From a virus, in the UHGV virus genome UHGV-0134778: 64,000 bases of DNA. One strand, given 5' to 3'. Under the pieces are notes generated by a model that was given only the letters and a program-made list of their open reading frames with translations, did not search any database and was not told the DNA's origin. The position numbers and the translations under genes were made by a program. The number at the start of each line of letters is the position of its first letter. Position 1 is the first letter of the stretch. Below, piece after piece: positions 5,230 to 63,314 of this stretch.

Positions 5230-6276
5230 TTAAGCATAAGATATGGTGATCCATTGACCGTTTACAAATTTTTGAATAGCTCCAGTCCAATAGTCGCCCT
5301 GATACGGGTGTTTATAGGCGTAATTGCCGGAGCACATTACATGCCCAGGGTATACTCTTGATTCTCTGTAGGTGGTTCTGAAACGGTTTGCTATCCTTAC
5401 ATCTTCAACACCTCTGCTAGGCATAGGAATAGTAAGGTTACCACTACTGTCTGCGCTACTACCATTTACCCTGCGGACCACGTTTCTTCCACCAACTGTT
5501 GCATATTGACCCCTGGCGGTTTTATCGTTACAATCTACTCTTCCGCCTATTTGAGCGCTGCCGCAGGATTGTTGTCCATTAACAGTGGCTCTAGGTATCG
5601 TTACCGCATTAGCATTTGCAGAGGCGCTTTTTGCATCATTGCATTCAAGATTTCCTTGGATAGCCAGTCTTGCACGGTTGGCAGTTATAGCATTGAGCTT
5701 CATAGCCGAAAACACAGGCTGCCCACCGGAAGGTTGAAATCTCCAACGGAAACCGTCTATTTGGTGGGAGGGGTCATCAAGGTCTGTGCCGTCAGCACCA
5801 CCGATGTTGTCCATAATCCAGAAATCCATCATCGTCTTGTCCGGAGTTATGGTGGTATATATTGCCGCATTGTCTGTTGACGCAGATGCAAACTCGATCC
5901 TTTGAAGACCTAAAGTTTGAGTCTGGATCATTGTGTCTCCAGCCTTGTCAACATAAAGGTCATCCATTTCTTCAGGTGAGTATACATTGAGAACTTGACG
6001 TGCAGCAGCTTTGTCTGGAACGTCTGCCAGATTATTAGTGACCCTTAAGAATCTATTATCCCATCCAGGGACAACATCTTCTGTTAAATGCTTTAGCCAC
6101 GCAGAGAGCATGTGGAGTTCAAAGTTAACAACTTCACATGCTATCCTTTGTGTCATATCCCAACCTTTCAATCTCTCTTCTTTGTTCGGTTGAGATTTGT
6201 TCAACTCTCCTGTATTTTCAAGCACAACATCCTGGTTGGCCCAAATATCAAGAGGGATACCTGGTTTAGTCATCAC
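5230..6276 (-). CDS. tail fibre / receptor-binding protein, paralog A
   Basis: 348 aa; N-terminus (PLDIWANQD..KGWD) and C-terminus (KFVNGQWITISYA) match the 7289..8329 protein while the centre diverges. Confidence 0.5.
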   Translation of the reverse strand: MMTKPGIPLDIWANQDVVLENTGELNKSQPNKEERLKGWDMTQRIACEVVNFELHMLSAWLKHLTEDVVPGWDNRFLRVTNNLADVPDKAAARQVLNVYSPEEMDDLYVDKAGDTMIQTQTLGLQRIEFASASTDNAAIYTTITPDKTMMDFWIMDNIGGADGTDLDDPSHQIDGFRWRFQPSGGQPVFSAMKLNAITANRARLAIQGNLECNDAKSASANANAVTIPRATVNGQQSCGSAQIGGRVDCNDKTARGQYATVGGRNVVRRVNGSSADSSGNLTIPMPSRGVEDVRIANRFRTTYRESRVYPGHVMCSGNYAYKHPYQGDYWTGAIQKFVNGQWITISYA

Positions 6277-6363
6277 GTTCTCCTGAGAAAATTCCTTAAG
6301 GACTATTTTAACACTTTAGAGAACAAAATGCAAGAACGGCATCCTTGCCGTTCTGACCTTTGT

Positions 6364-6678
6364 TTACCTTTTACTATGCTCTACAAGCATGTGTAAAATC
6401 TTTTGCACATCGGCTCTGATACCGGAGACATCTGTCCTGACATCTTGCTTAAGGTCGTTAATATCGGCCTCTAGCTTACTTAACCGGGTCTCGATAATGG
6501 AATCAAGTCTATCTTTTGTAACCATGCTATTTTTCACTAAAATGAGGTCTTTCTCCAGCTCATCCAGCCTCTTGGAAATGCCTTTCCATTTGGTGTGCCA
6601 CTGGTTGAAAGCCCATACACAGATCGGGACAACGGTACCCATGCAGATACCGTATAATGCCGCCAAATCCAACTCCAC
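6364..6678 (-). CDS. membrane-anchored coiled-coil protein (holin or lysis regulator candidate)
   Basis: 104 aa; one N-terminal TM helix (LAALYGICMGTVVPICVWAF) followed by heptad-like charged region. Confidence 0.3.
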   Translation of the reverse strand: MELDLAALYGICMGTVVPICVWAFNQWHTKWKGISKRLDELEKDLILVKNSMVTKDRLDSIIETRLSKLEADINDLKQDVRTDVSGIRADVQKILHMLVEHSKR

Positions 6679-6689
6679 AACACCTCCTC

Positions 6690-7274
6690 TTAGAGGGTAG
6701 GTCGTTCCGGGAAGAAAATGTCAGGGGCTTTAGATGTATCTATTTCAAGAAGTTTTACCCTGTACATTTTCAAATCTCTGATGTTGCGTTTCTGGTCATC
6801 AGTAAGATCATATTCAAGGTCAATCATGTCTTGATAGGCACCAATTCTAGCAGTAGCCCAAGCAAGTTCTGTCTCTATGACACCCTCTGCCTGTTGAACA
6901 AAGAACTCATTGTCTGCGACAAATTCATCACCAACTAAACGCAAAGCGTCGTGGTGGAGCATAATGTTTTCTGGTACCTCTTCTTTTTTGGCGATAACCA
7001 CACGAAGACCTGGAGCAGGCCACAAGGCATCAGGCTCTTCTGTAGATGTCTTAAGAATACCCTTCTCGTCAACAAGTAGGAAGATACAGCCAGGATTTTC
7101 TTGTCGCAATGTTCGTGATTGGACATACCAATCGCCATCATCGTTACGTAAAAAATATCCAGTGTATGCCGTGTAATCCTCCACCTCTTGAGGGGTAAGC
7201 TCCTTGGTCTCGTTGTTAGTGAAGTATTCGCCAGATCCCGGCTGGTAAAGTTTAAACTCTTGAAGTATTTTCAT
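6690..7274 (-). CDS. tail fibre assembly chaperone (Tfa-like)
   Basis: 194 aa; C-terminal YRVKLLEIDTSKAPDIFFPERP matches the conserved Tfa motif; directly downstream of a fibre gene. Confidence 0.55.
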   Translation of the reverse strand: MKILQEFKLYQPGSGEYFTNNETKELTPQEVEDYTAYTGYFLRNDDGDWYVQSRTLRQENPGCIFLLVDEKGILKTSTEEPDALWPAPGLRVVIAKKEEVPENIMLHHDALRLVGDEFVADNEFFVQQAEGVIETELAWATARIGAYQDMIDLEYDLTDDQKRNIRDLKMYRVKLLEIDTSKAPDIFFPERPTL

Positions 7275-28136: not shown

Positions 28137-29048
28137 TTATTTTCCGTTAACTTTGTTGTAGTTTCCCTGCTCAGATGGGACTATGGTAGAAGGTCTTCCA
28201 TATTCCTGATAATACCAATCTGCTGCGGATTGGGTAACACCGTTTTCATCCGTCCACATCATAGATTTGTATGGCTGCCACTCTTCTGCGGCATTTGTGG
28301 AGGCAGTGTCTGCAAATGCCCCTGTGTCCCTCTTGTTACCTACGTTACTACCATTCTTACAGTCGTTGACAGCACCTTTTTGCTGGGTCTTGCCCACTTT
28401 CTTAGGGTTGCTGTATACAGTTGCATTAACAACCTTGTTCAAGTAGAATGTGCGGAACTCTGTAAGTTCTACATCAAACACCATCGCAGCACCTTCACCA
28501 ACAGACTTGTTGGCAGAAAGGCTGGTTATGATGTAGTTCTCAAGAAGTCTTTCCTCGGTAACCAAAGAAACCAACTGGCGCTTATTAATGATCTCAGTCA
28601 AAGCCTCCAGTGCAGCGCCTGGTCGCATAGATGCTGCAGGATTTTTAGAGTCAGTATTCCTGTCAATGTAGTTTTGCTCATAGATTATATGTGGTGATGT
28701 ATTTACCCTACCAGTAAAAGAAAATACACCATCTTTAATTACAGCGTGGTCTGACAGGGTAGATTTATCTTCCACCGCAAACCCGGTCTTATCAACAGAA
28801 TGTTTGAAAGAGTAGTTCTCAACCTGATCGAAGATAATGGCAAGATCGTTAGTAAAGTTTTTACCCTTCATCTCCGTATTGCGACCACCATAGTTAAGAC
28901 CACTGACAAACATAGTGTACTTTACATCGCTTTCAGTTTGCTGCTCTGCCTTTTCAGCCTTTGGAGATTTAACCTCTTGAGGCTTGTACAGGTCTTTTTC
29001 ATCAACTATATTGCTTGGCATAACCTCTCCAGGACACTCCGATACCAT
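28137..29048 (-). CDS. tail protein distal to tape measure (start may be internal Met near 29021)
   Basis: 303-aa ORF; GGAGAGG RBS precedes the internal MPSNIV start. Confidence 0.3.
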   Translation of the reverse strand: MVSECPGEVMPSNIVDEKDLYKPQEVKSPKAEKAEQQTESDVKYTMFVSGLNYGGRNTEMKGKNFTNDLAIIFDQVENYSFKHSVDKTGFAVEDKSTLSDHAVIKDGVFSFTGRVNTSPHIIYEQNYIDRNTDSKNPAASMRPGAALEALTEIINKRQLVSLVTEERLLENYIITSLSANKSVGEGAAMVFDVELTEFRTFYLNKVVNATVYSNPKKVGKTQQKGAVNDCKNGSNVGNKRDTGAFADTASTNAAEEWQPYKSMMWTDENGVTQSAADWYYQEYGRPSTIVPSEQGNYNKVNGK

Positions 29049-35343: not shown

Positions 35344-35814
35344 TTACTGTCCAATTTTAAAGGTTGCAGATTCAAGCAGCACATCGTAATGCCGCATAGC
35401 CTCGTTGAAGCCCTTCTCTTGTGCCCACTGCTCACTAACAGTAGGGTTACTAAACTGACCAGCCTCAATAACAAACTGGATAGCTTTGGCCCCTGTGTCC
35501 CCCATCTGCCTAAGAACAGCCTCTGCACTTGATCCTCTAGCCATAGCTCTCAACAATTTTTCTGTCAAGGTCTGTAGTTGCGTGCTGTGAAATGCAAAGG
35601 CCGTCTCCATGAAATTGCGAACAGGCAGCCCGTTCCAACCGAAGTTGTGAATAGCTGCCAATGTTGCCATATTTAAGCCTGACGGGTGAGGTTCATCATA
35701 AAAGCCGTAGGTTATTGTTTTGCTTTCAAGTTTCACAAGGTCTTTATAAAAGCGATCTAAACGCTTTAGGTTGAACCTTGTTTGACATTTAACCTTTAGC
35801 ATTATATTCCTCAC
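35344..35814 (-). CDS. head completion / neck protein
   Basis: 156-aa ORF in head-tail connector block. Confidence 0.3.
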   Translation of the reverse strand: MRNIMLKVKCQTRFNLKRLDRFYKDLVKLESKTITYGFYDEPHPSGLNMATLAAIHNFGWNGLPVRNFMETAFAFHSTQLQTLTEKLLRAMARGSSAEAVLRQMGDTGAKAIQFVIEAGQFSNPTVSEQWAQEKGFNEAMRHYDVLLESATFKIGQ

Positions 35815-48519: not shown

Positions 48520-48745
48520 CACATAACTTTATCCGAACTCGCGCGGGAGGCTCTCAACCGACTCCTTCCGGCGCTGGCAAGCTTTCGTCGGTGGTCCACA
48601 TTAGTGCTCGGCCTTTGGCCTGCGCTATCGCTTCGCTCCCACACATGTTAACAGTCCTGCATGTATGCACTTCTGTTATTGTGTGCACTATGGAGGCCCG
48701 GCATCTCGCCCCCCCCGTAGGCGAGTGCCAATGAAGGGCCGACAC
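48520..48745. other. GC-rich structured island, candidate non-coding RNA or long 5' leader
   Basis: About 225 nt of high GC in an AT-rich genome with nested hairpins (e.g. GGCACUCGCC...GGCGAGAUGCC, GGCC-AAA-GGCC); overlapping ORFs have implausible composition. Confidence 0.3.
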
Positions 48746-48883
48746 TACCCATAATAAGTAATAAATTTAAAACATGGTACTTAGGATCTAGTATATTCTA
48801 CATAAGTTAAGTATATGTACTTTAGTACCATAAGTACTAGATCTTTTATTTTTATTATTTAGTTATTTTAGTTATATTCTTTA

Positions 48884-48967
48884 TGTGTCCGTATCACGGA
48901 CAGTTAGTGTCCGTATTACGGGCAGATGTGTCCGCGTGACGGACAGTAGTGTCCGTATCACGGACAG
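48884..48967. repeat. four tandem 19-bp palindromic repeats (GTGTCCGTATCACGGACAG) with 21-22 bp period
   Basis: Copies start at 48885, 48907, 48928, 48949; each has arms TGTCCGT/ACGGACA; AT-rich hairpin just upstream. Confidence 0.6.
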
Positions 48968-49041: not shown

Positions 49042-49392
49042 CTAACCAGTTGTTGACATTCGAATAACTTCTTCTGGTGGCAAAACTTTGGAAAATGTGC
49101 ATCTTTTACCTCTCCCTTGTGTGGATATTTCAACCACTCCTGCACATTCTAAAGTTTTAACGCACGCTGCTGCTTTTGTTTTCTTTATCCCAACATCTGC
49201 TGCAATTTTCCTTGTGCTTGGTGTGAAGCGTGAATTTTCTCCAAGCTTATACCAGTTGTGCAGGTAGCAGTATACGATCTTGTCATATAAGTCAAGAACA
49301 ACAACCTCCCCAGTTGTGTCATTCAAAACTTTTGACATAGACAGTATTTCAAGGGGGACTTTAAGATATAGCAGCTTATCCCCATCTTTCAT
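49042..49392 (-). CDS. winged-helix-like DNA-binding protein
   Basis: 116 aa; segment STRKIAADVGIKKTKAAACVKTLECAGVV resembles an HTH; gene ends 75 bp from the repeats. Confidence 0.35.
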   Translation of the reverse strand: MKDGDKLLYLKVPLEILSMSKVLNDTTGEVVVLDLYDKIVYCYLHNWYKLGENSRFTPSTRKIAADVGIKKTKAAACVKTLECAGVVEISTQGRGKRCTFSKVLPPEEVIRMSTTG

Positions 49393-49439
49393 ATCTCCTG
49401 ATTCTCCTTGTGTGGCAATTTTCTTTAAAATAGCAGGGA

Positions 49440-49994
49440 TTACTCCCCGCTGTCAATAGCAAGACTCATTGCAATACGGTATGCCTCTTCTAATGGTAAG
49501 AGTCTCCCCCACACATCCCAACCGACATCAAACTGCCTGCCAAACAACTGCTGTGTGGTTCCGTGAGCATGACCGAACAGTTGGACTGATCCGTGAGGCT
49601 TTCTGTTCCACTTTGCAAACTGGTAATGGCTCATACAGATCAAATTCTTGTTGTGGCGAAGCTCGTAATAATCTACAACCTCATGACCGAACTCTTTCAT
49701 AATTCTGACAGTCGTCCTTGTGTCATGGTTACCACGAACAAGAATAATATGTCCGTTCAACATATTTAGAACATCTGGAAGCAATTTGTTGATATTCTTA
49801 TCATTAGTGCACGCAATATCCCCCAAGTGAAACACAGTGTCTGCAGGTGACACAACAGAGTTCCACTTGGTGATGATTCCCGCATTCATACTGTCAAGAT
49901 TGTGATCATACTGAGATCTGTGTTTTTGACATGAGTCGAACTCCATTACCCGCTGGTGGAGAAAGTGTGTGTCGCTTGTTACAAAGTATTTCAT
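49440..49994 (-). CDS. calcineurin-like metallophosphoesterase (polynucleotide 2',3'-phosphatase candidate)
   Basis: ORF track gives 49440..50099, but GAGGAA RBS precedes the internal MKYF start; motifs SDTHF, HLGDI, RGNHD. Confidence 0.55.
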   Translation of the reverse strand: MKYFVTSDTHFLHQRVMEFDSCQKHRSQYDHNLDSMNAGIITKWNSVVSPADTVFHLGDIACTNDKNINKLLPDVLNMLNGHIILVRGNHDTRTTVRIMKEFGHEVVDYYELRHNKNLICMSHYQFAKWNRKPHGSVQLFGHAHGTTQQLFGRQFDVGWDVWGRLLPLEEAYRIAMSLAIDSGE

Positions 49995-62508: not shown

Positions 62509-62712
62509 TTGGAGACCGCAATGACACCAGAGTTAACAATTCCAGACAGCTTTTCAGAAAGCTTTATCCCAGAAATGATGAAGAAGATGCGATCACTGCT
62601 TGATCAGATTGAGGAGGCTGTTTGGGAAGACGATGCTGTAGTAGCTAACGAGCTGGTAGATAAGTGTAAAAGTATTATTGATGCAGTTGAAGAATACCAC
62701 GGAGGTTTTTAA
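62509..62712 (+). CDS. hypothetical small acidic protein
   Basis: 67-aa ORF with GGAGACC RBS. Confidence 0.35.
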   Translation: METAMTPELTIPDSFSESFIPEMMKKMRSLLDQIEEAVWEDDAVVANELVDKCKSIIDAVEEYHGGF

Positions 62713-63314
62713 TGGATATTATTGTTCTTAATGCTCCACCAAGTTCTGGAAAAGACCATATCGCAGATCTTTTGTTGGAAGCCATTCCAAACTCGCATCA
62801 CCGAGAGGTAAAGGAAATGCTATTCAGTGTGGCAATTAAGGCAGCTGGTATTTCACCGCAGTTGTGGAATGCACTCTATGATCGCCGCTACAAAGAAGAA
62901 CCGTGCCCGTTCTTAATGATAGACGGCAAGCATGTTTCTCCGCGAGAATGGATGATCCATTGTAGTGAAAATCTGATTAAACCTATCTTTGGTGAAGACG
63001 CTTTCGGTAAGGCCGCAGTCGCATCCTTGAAGAAAGATTTCCCTGAAGGTAAAGGGGTTGTTGTTTACTCCGATGGTGGCTTCAAAGAGGAGCTGGCATG
63101 CCTTGGCGAGTACGCATACAGCACAGGTGGCGATCTTCTACTGTTCCGTATCCACCGTGCAGGATATGATTGGGGAAATGATTCCAGAACTTACCTTAGC
63201 CTAGAGAAGAACGGGATAAAAGGTATCGAGTTTGATGTTGTTAACCCTGAGGGGTCTCCTTGGGAGTGCGCATCTGAGATTGTGTGCAAGTATATTGATG
63301 CTAAAGAGGTCTGA
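62712..63314 (+). CDS. deoxynucleoside monophosphate kinase-like P-loop protein
   Basis: N-terminal NAPPSSGKDH parallels T4 gp1 SGVKRSGKDT. Confidence 0.45.
   Translation: MDIIVLNAPPSSGKDHIADLLLEAIPNSHHREVKEMLFSVAIKAAGISPQLWNALYDRRYKEEPCPFLMIDGKHVSPREWMIHCSENLIKPIFGEDAFGKAAVASLKKDFPEGKGVVVYSDGGFKEELACLGEYAYSTGGDLLLFRIHRAGYDWGNDSRTYLSLEKNGIKGIEFDVVNPEGSPWECASEIVCKYIDAKEV

Follow-up and report, generated by a model that had tools for sequence, protein, structure and literature searches.

What is a GC-rich island without an evident gene for, in the early region of a virulent phage? The question is raised by positions 48520–48745 of a 64,000-nt stretch of the virus genome UHGV-0134778 (hereafter the window), which comes from an rV5-like myovirus of the genus Vequintavirus. 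An earlier reading of the sequence alone (the original prediction) had picked out this island, upstream of a gene for a 192-aa protein (47802–48380), as a candidate non-coding RNA. rV5-like phages are in wide use against Escherichia coli O157 and in therapy cocktails, and their early region and replication origin are uncharacterised. Our comparison established that the island is a real, conserved and non-coding element, that its modules are joined by a linker resembling boxC from ribosomal RNA (rrn) operons, and that it is shared with phage-like plasmids of E. coli. The folded element is most likely an RNA; a role as single-stranded DNA (ssDNA) is the main alternative.

Conservation and fold of the element

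The GC content of the island was 0.584, higher than in any other 226-nt stretch of the window (mean 0.440, standard deviation 0.035; z = 4.1), with 0.41 in one flank (48381–48519) and 0.21 in the other (48746–48870). The predicted rise in GC over about 225 bp was genuine, and the predicted limits agreed with the element as defined here by homology (48493–48745; Table 1). Its 5' edge on the minus strand was the exact start of the homology with a divergent rV5-like contig (IMG/VR 3300010279_000001; loci L006 and L108), all sequence further upstream being different.

The region 48400–48800 matched 119 phage records over its full length at 90–99% identity, the closest being vB_EcoM-ECP26, and the element occupied the same place in 119 of 119 Vequintavirus records. 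The divergent contig carried it at 85% identity and was, chance matches aside, the only find in exact-pattern scans of IMG/VR. An exact-pattern scan of the GTDB species genomes gave nothing; metagenomes yielded rV5-like contigs, two further plasmid-like contigs and one chance match in a GC-rich gene. Other genera of the Vequintavirinae and the Stephanstirmvirinae had a different gene order and no copy detectable with a covariance model, and the neighbouring 192-aa gene was confined to the genus. Among the non-coding features of the genus the element ranks with the best conserved, and it bears clear signs of structural selection. An origin from the host chromosome, which had been suggested as a check, found no support: the 5,426 E. 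coli genomes searched contained no chromosomal match, and the four records that did match were plasmids. Some 18–20 GenBank records named 'Campylobacter phage' (MG0656xx) contained this rV5-like E. coli phage sequence, and a 137.5-kb 'plasmid' in PLSDB (CP057073.1) also matched the element. These records are probably mislabelled or contaminating rV5-like genomes.

The original prediction had seen no credible open reading frame (ORF) in the island, and the comparison agreed. Open frames were present in several frames, and the overlapping ORFs are a by-product of the high GC content, at which stop codons are rare. Indels among close phage relatives (one of 2 nt and two of 1 nt, besides others of 3 and 18 nt) meant that reading frames differed from phage to phage. 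In the sole frame open in all phages, four of four core substitutions checked were non-synonymous (N/D, G/V, A/V, D/G). No frame in the island was conserved under purifying selection, and no protein family matched the island ORFs by composition. Most phage records annotated nothing at this place, and a few called short hypothetical ORFs.

The island was also placed in no known RNA family, in line with the failure to recognise RNase P, tmRNA or group I/II core motifs by eye. A scan with Rfam 15 gave no family at the gathering score. The only listing at E ≤ 10, rli43, scored 22.4 bits against a threshold of 100 and is a chance match; a scan of one of the plasmids (L008) gave none either. ARAGORN found no tmRNA or tRNA at the island, and reported in the window only seven tRNA genes at 45.7–46.5 kb. 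A resemblance to SRP RNA (CCGGAAGGA) was dropped, as it had no Rfam support.

Folding energy (minus strand, z = −1.39; plus strand, z = −2.85) was unremarkable and insufficient on its own to show structure; the case for structure was therefore built on comparison. A covariance model of the core (R1) found a single copy in the window, at 48540–48645 with 130.8 bits. It also recovered the plasmid copies, including a distant one on contig L119 (42 bits, E ~3e-7), where the neighbouring marker protein was merely 46% identical. Across 13 distinct cores, 99.3% of 302 pair cells were standard pairs, compared with 35–46% when partners were slid. Both sides had changed in 11 of the 24 core pairs, and no shuffle reached the observed values. 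Helix H1 existed in four versions, all paired (ACCGAC/GUCGGU, GCUGCC/GGCAGC, CCGUCC/GGACGG and GCCGGA/UCCGGC), with five of its six pairs changed on both sides. The 24-nt three-way junction that it carries was nearly invariant (GAAA-[GCU UGCC AGC]-G-[CC GNRA GG]-A): its tetraloop was GGAA, GUAA or GGGA, always within the GNRA form, and its 3-bp hairpin covaried in L119. In the closing helix P1, the linker paired with CUCCCGCGCG (48540–48549), three U·G pairs included; the wobble partner closing the 106-nt core was CCCGCGCG.

Outside the core, the 15 pairs of hairpin H2 were paired in 100% of cases in five lineages (36–47% with slid partners), and two of them had changed on both sides, from G-C to U-A. 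The place of the variable middle hairpin was filled in the plasmids by unrelated hairpin modules. The hairpins noted in the original prediction were thus genuine, and the covariation among relatives that it had called for was present in both the core and H2. Its central proposal, a structured and conserved non-coding element outside the known families, held.

The core pairing contained 26 G·U cells and at most two A·C cells, the form that G·U pairs take on the opposite strand; the folded strand is therefore the minus strand of the window. In 13 of 15 rows, the core reached a lower minimum free energy on the sense strand than on the antisense one, the difference amounting to as much as 7 kcal/mol. 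The operon downstream had the folded strand as its sense strand in all phages and plasmids. The pairing comparison establishes that the element is under selection to fold on this strand. The strand asymmetry as such fits RNA and ssDNA equally: where genes point away from an origin, one and the same strand is both their sense strand and the template of the lagging strand, so orientation cannot separate the two.

Table 1. Features of the element and its surroundings (positions in the window).
Feature	Position	Strand	Description
boxA-like sequence	48424–48434	−	GCUCGUUACAA; 7/8 to GCUCUUUA; in a 40-nt block identical in the window and L006; weak, not counted as a member
Whole element	48493–48745	−	GUGUC GGCCC... 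through conserved ...CCCCUAAAU; extent from homology with phage L006 and plasmids
Conserved motif, 3' end of element	48493–48501	−	CCCCUAAAU; shared by every phage and plasmid lineage, its distance from the core being similar
Second linker copy, degenerate	48517–48523	−	UGUGUGG
Core domain, 106 nt	48540–48645	−	P1, small GC hairpins, AAUGUGGACC segment, H1, apical three-way junction
Helix H1 and 24-nt junction	48557–48592	−	H1: 48587–48592 with 48557–48562; junction: 48563–48586
Linker	48638–48645	−	UGUGUGGG; exact match to the 8-nt core of rrn boxC; forms P1, the closing helix, as its 5' strand
Variable middle hairpin	48646–48694	−	18-nt indel and uncompensated changes among close phages
Hairpin H2	48695–48740	−	Outer stem GGCCC/GGGCC, conserved 6-nt internal loop UUCAWU, 10-bp inner stem, bulged A
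AT-rich tract, ~140 bp	48746–48885		GC 0.21–0.24; invariant in six phages; outside the folded element
Four 17-bp dyad repeats	48886–48966		TGTCCGTNNNACGGACA; starts 48886, 48908, 48929, 48950; spacing 21–22 bp
116-aa winged-HTH protein (rV5 gp075)	49042–49392	−	Pfam HTH_36, 24.8 bits (cut-off 25); DUF6945
Nearest upstream sigma-70-like promoter	49427–49456	−	TTGACA-18-TATTTT with TG

boxC-like linkers and phage-like plasmids

In searches of E. coli genomes and plasmids, the element was found only on small circular plasmids of 13–15 kb (CP020521, here L002; CP148565, L008; CP035869; CP178698) and on a 39.6-kb trimer (CP043822, L007). Look-ups in metagenomes and assemblies added the plasmid-like contigs L104, L107, L117, L119, L121 and L123. 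The plasmids encoded a major head protein, a tape measure, a Dit-like baseplate protein, a neck or tail-completion protein and a lambda-O-like HTH_36 replication protein (Rep); no plasmid ORF was large enough for a terminase or portal. Their Dit and neck proteins were 54% and 48% identical to proteins encoded at 28335–28892 and 35374–35715 of the window, and the shared blocks of the non-coding element were ~85% identical between plasmid and phage. A protein-guided search for relatives of the plasmids in GTDB genomes and IMG/VR found none, and no paper describing this 13–15 kb plasmid family was found in the literature. The family has the look of satellites carried as plasmids, or of mini-phages, that are kin to rV5-like phages and so far undescribed.

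The linker octamer UGUGUGGG links the element to rRNA leaders. In the Enterobacteriaceae, boxC of the rrn leader reads UCUGUGUGGG and forms the 5' strand of the helix between leader and trailer, in which Watson–Crick and wobble pairs are interchangeable (PMC10250234); we confirmed the motif in the rrnB leader sequence. The window matched 8 of the 10 positions, with the 8-nt core exact, and here too boxC was one strand of a wobble-rich helix closing a structured domain. In the plasmids, the full 10-mer occurred exactly, was strongly enriched and lay downstream of a boxA-like sequence. With up to one mismatch, it was found 13 times in L104 and nine times in L008; for L008 the expected number was 0.8, and eight of the nine copies lay in the sense orientation of the local genes. 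One exact boxC of L008 stood ~170 nt past a consensus TTGACA-17-TATAAT promoter, in the leader of the capsid operon. In the window, CCACACA/TGTGTGG heptamers numbered 20, more than in any shuffle (mean 11.2), and nine of them fell within 48.5–51.5 kb.

The plasmid elements consisted of two to five unrelated small GC hairpins, each followed by (UC)UGUGUG(UG)GGG. Several of these hairpins had UUCG (cUUCGg), GAA or GNRA loops, and in L117 H2 served as one such module. The first plasmid module reads ...CUCUUUAGGCAAUCUGUGUGGG. In L121 this module contained the exact rrn boxA, UGCUCUUUA (PMC2724277), five nt ahead of an exact boxC; other plasmids had the boxA-like ACUCUUUA or CCUCUUUA within a 10-bp stem. 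The pattern CTCTTTA-N3-22-TGTGTGG occurred once per unit in each plasmid locus covering the region and also in the rrnB leader, and in none of 112 other loci compared. We took boxA as UGCUCUUUA in rrn and CGCUCUUA in lambda, a single-stranded sequence that binds NusB–NusE. The phage copy is without the first plasmid module. Exact GCTCTTTA, CGCTCTTA and CGCTCTTT were absent from the window island and its vicinity, and the best boxA candidate, GCUCGUUA (48427–48434, 7/8), was a weak match 100 nt downstream of the core.

Two variants of the core were distinguished. In L121 and L123 ('type 2') the frame was kept (UGUGUGUGGGG ... AAUGUGGA ... long H1 ... CUCGCGCG) and the apical domain was different; the type 2 core had no match among 50,697 phage records. 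The Reps of L117 and L123 were 91% identical, and their junctions belonged to type 1 and type 2, respectively, which argues against Rep as the reader of the junction. E. coli is the host of all these elements, so that a variable, for instance phage-encoded, partner of the junction appears more likely than a host factor. Contig L119 carried two diverged copies of the element on the same strand, on either side of a pure A/T tract of ~230 nt (6150–6365), each copy being followed by a terminator-like hairpin with a U run. The A/T tract was composed of (ATATAATATA)-like repeats. Beside the full-length Rep of L121 (7194–8078) stood a separate 128-aa copy of the Rep N-terminal domain (6797–7183), 78% identical to the Rep N-terminus of another plasmid; this type of protein is that of phage gp075.

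The original prediction had allowed for a foreign remnant, considered here as a functionless piece of DNA, either a decayed gene or captured from a plasmid. The island's GC content is foreign to the phage, homologous plasmid DNA exists, and some annotators call short ORFs. Against this, the element was retained in every Vequintavirus record at high identity, its pairing was upheld by compensatory changes, and its frames were neither conserved nor matched by a protein family. A functionless remnant is largely refuted and retains hardly any probability in our view: the suggestion fails for decayed DNA, which would not be under structural selection, and stands only in that the element belongs to a module family shared with plasmids. 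Alternatively, the element could be an array of protein sites in duplex DNA that a satellite has copied from its helper, for example a pac site at which the small terminase starts packaging, or a site for plasmid partition. Several observations would suit such an array: the element is the sole non-coding sequence common to the phage window and the plasmids, which show no terminase or portal, a motif of 8–10 bp recurs at a spacing of 40–120 bp, and rV5 has been described as circularly permuted (PMC3606486). For a duplex, the excess of G·U over A·C and the compensatory changes in five helices would make no sense, and the hairpin sequences between the motifs varied freely while pairing held. We regard a duplex site as very improbable; the wobble asymmetry and the compensatory changes disfavour it as they do the remnant.

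A possible leader RNA

The element matched no described family. The nearest systems were the rrn leader and the lambda nut site in motifs and logic, and the single-strand initiation (ssi) signals in position. We tentatively favour a cis-acting leader RNA of the rrn/nut type with a factor-docking junction, which we consider possible, if short of probable. The riboregulatory leader named in the original prediction stays in contention, because the strand that folds is also the sense strand for the early operon.

In this scheme, the element would be transcribed within an early transcript from the promoter ahead of the gp075-like gene. Upstream on the minus strand this was the only promoter of sigma-70 type, and between it and the element that strand showed no further site resembling a promoter or a terminator. 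The transcript would cross a 660-nt untranslated spacer into the 192-aa gene and possibly run on towards the tRNA cluster; other sigma-70-like promoters lie between that gene and the cluster. The leader would shield this long, untranslated and structured transcript from premature Rho-dependent termination and might aid its folding or processing. The invariant junction would be the docking site for a specific factor, encoded by the phage and not by the host, and the plasmids would plug into the same system by carrying the same docking module behind an rrn-like boxA–boxC pair. We infer transcription of the element, the involvement of Nus factors, docking at the junction and a biological effect. 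The leader reading draws its support from the strand, the boxC identity, the boxA–boxC pair of the plasmids and a precedent: rrn operons and CRISPR arrays are established cases in which BoxA protects long untranslated arrays from Rho (PMC7665894). A literature search for transcriptomes of Vequintavirinae found nothing relevant. If the reading is correct, a virulent phage and its hitchhikers reuse the logic of rRNA leaders for untranslated RNA of their own.

The likeness to the rrn leader extends from the octamer of the phage and the full UCUGUGUGGG of the plasmids to the plasmid CUCUUUA ahead of boxC, exact as UGCUCUUUA in L121, and to an untranslated structured stretch on the sense strand. 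Unlike in the rrn leader, the linker is repeated two to five times between unrelated hairpins and encloses a 90-nt core instead of 16S rRNA. As at lambda nut, a putative docking hairpin with a GNRA-type loop stands beside Nus-type linear motifs. Like nutR, which comes after cro, the element follows an early operon's first small HTH gene, and like nutL, which precedes N, it has a gene of unknown function directly downstream. It differs from nut in having no sequence similarity to boxB, no recognised N homologue, no clear downstream terminators, and a three-way junction in place of a 15-nt hairpin.

A number of points weigh against a leader of this type. The phage has only the 8-nt boxC core and no convincing boxA, the boxA-like heptamer of the plasmids is part of a 10-bp hairpin, being located in the 3' arm, and its distance from boxC is 5 nt, compared with 18–19 nt in rrn leaders. 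The role of boxC in antitermination itself is unclear (PMC10250234). The phage element begins ~700 nt past the nearest promoter-like site and not just after it. In the plasmids, a good sigma-70 promoter stands between the element and the operon, and the downstream terminator-like hairpins are weak. The alignment (A4) was fitted to the covariance model and has few independent lineages. The constant company of iterons and AT-rich tracts is left unexplained, and mini-hairpins with GNRA and GAA loops are also typical of ssDNA origins. As the phage has no clear boxA, the spacing is wrong and ssDNA origins such as those of G4 and phiX174 gave no match, membership in neither the rrn/nut nor the ssi class is established.

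The core could instead be excised, for example by RNase III, to form a stable small RNA acting in trans as a decoy, a scaffold or a signal between helper and satellite. Small stable RNAs of unknown function lie beside the tRNA genes of T4. The compact, closed core with its three-way junction and GNRA loop would suit such a product, as would the terminator-like hairpin and U run after each of the two L119 units, and P1 resembles the boxC leader–trailer helix that RNase III processes in rRNA precursors (PMC10250234). In the phage, by contrast, no promoter-like site lies directly upstream and no terminator follows, P1 measures merely ~10 bp, and the sequence just 5' of the element is the least conserved. 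We consider a trans-acting RNA decidedly unlikely.

The invariant junction could be a helper-specific docking module, and the plasmids satellites of virulent rV5-like phages that, by means of a copy of the helper's folded element, couple their expression or replication to infection. The type 2 plasmids would then answer to a different, still unsequenced helper. We consider this relationship, type 2 helper included, fairly unlikely as it stands; if true, it would be the first satellite system of Vequintavirus and a case of helper sensing based on RNA structure, and the shared element makes the link between helper and satellite directly testable. Like the cis sites (cos and late-promoter sites) of the helper–satellite pair P2 and P4, a non-coding element ~85% identical connects a large virulent phage with small elements whose shared proteins are ~50% identical. 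Unlike those sites, it is a folded single-stranded structure and not a duplex site, and the tie between helper and satellite is a conjecture.

The origin-like module and other neighbouring features

The original prediction overlooked a lambda-like module of iterons and AT-rich DNA directly upstream of the element, as well as the homologues on phage-like plasmids. On the minus strand, the order was promoter, gp075-like gene, repeats, AT-rich tract, element and 192-aa gene. The repeats were perfect or near-perfect palindromes (TGTCCGT-N3-ACGGACA), and repeats and tract were invariant in six phages despite 5–8% divergence of the coding flanks. Four dyad repeats at a spacing of two helical turns beside an A-rich tract is the layout of lambda ori as annotated in NC_001416. 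The gp075-like protein matched the PHROG 'replication initiation protein' and, in BLASTP (E 1e-4 to 3e-7), showed distant homology to the plasmid Reps in their N-terminal domain, the only Rep domain that the phage protein has. In the divergent phage L006 the element stayed, and the module had given way to another HTH protein with another set of repeats and an A-rich tract; this tract shared the 14-mer AGAAAAAAGAAAAG with that of lambda ori. In every plasmid, the element followed an iteron array, with at least four iteron types among them. It is established that the element is always placed between the origin-like module and the operon. The module had four dyad iterons beside an AT-rich tract and a putative HTH_36-type initiator that changed with the iterons, and we propose 48746–48966, downstream of the gene resembling a Rep N-terminal domain, as a candidate, lambda-ori-like origin of the genus.

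This position suggests that the element might be an accessory of the origin acting as ssDNA, either as a priming or helicase-loading (ssi-like) signal or as a GC clamp that limits unwinding. The initiator would open the AT tract; the minus strand, the lagging-strand template of the outgoing fork, would fold into hairpins; and a primase–helicase of the phage would recognise the junction, so that plasmids carrying the element are copied by the replisome of the helper. Such a role best explains the constant company of iterons and AT-rich tract. At least seven contexts (the window, L006, L008, L002, L119, L121 and L123) had the element directly downstream of iterons in an array, often with an AT-rich tract between and with an HTH_36 or lambda-O-like initiator-type gene close by. 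Iterons and initiators varied while the element stayed, as expected if it faces a common replisome, and the likeness to lambda ori, including the 14-mer of L006, points the same way. GCGAAGC and CGAAAG mini-hairpins are present in the complementary-strand origin of phage G4, and GC hairpins with GAA or GAAA loops on one strand, beside iterons and an AT-rich tract, recall ssi signals, the G4 origin and ssiA–ssiB of the RSF1010 oriV.

However, R1 gave no match to G4 or phiX174 at E ≤ 10, only short strings (CGAAAGC, GCGAAGC) being shared, and the element is far larger than these signals and modular. The two L119 copies lie on the same strand on either side of the A/T tract, unlike ssi pairs, whose members are oriented towards one another. 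In recombination, initiator, iterons and AT tract are exchanged together, and the element stays with the downstream genes. Neither the rrn-like boxA–boxC composite nor the boxC in the capsid-operon leader would be explained. We consider an ssDNA role somewhat doubtful; if it is correct, the replication origin of the genus is defined. The RNA II primer of ColE1, also a folded transcript of a few hundred nt (here predicted) beside a replication origin and one whose structure matters, offers a parallel with differences: origins of the ColE1 type lack iterons as well as an initiator protein, the sequences are not similar, and the sense RNA of the phage element would run away from the AT-rich tract.

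Other candidate signals around the element were rejected. The plus-strand promoter-like TGGTATAGT (48463–48471) was not conserved, being TGCAGT in L006 and L105. DnaA boxes, Xer/cer sites, Chi, an SP6-type promoter and a type I-E CRISPR repeat had too many mismatches by eye; T7-type primase sites, also compared by eye, are left as speculation. A type III toxin–antitoxin and a CRISPR-like array were set aside, as the units are not repeats of one another. An AlphaFold prediction for the 192-aa protein had a pLDDT of 37 and could not be used.

Two further features lay downstream. A second GC-rich (0.56–0.61) non-coding island was present on the minus strand at 46985–47200, flanked by the gp071-like and gp070-like genes and directly upstream of a near-consensus promoter (46995–46967). 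It had no Rfam match and was unrelated to the island at 48520–48745; a stretch of ~45 nt (47072–47116) was 91–93% identical to an intergenic stretch in ~850 T4-like phages (e.g. phiD1, 62701–62745). Within the tRNA cluster, a tRNA-like gene of 99 nt (45936–46034, minus strand) had a 26-nt insertion in the variable region and, according to ARAGORN, a 4-nt anticodon; it scored 35.5 bits with the Rfam tRNA model and was conserved in L108.

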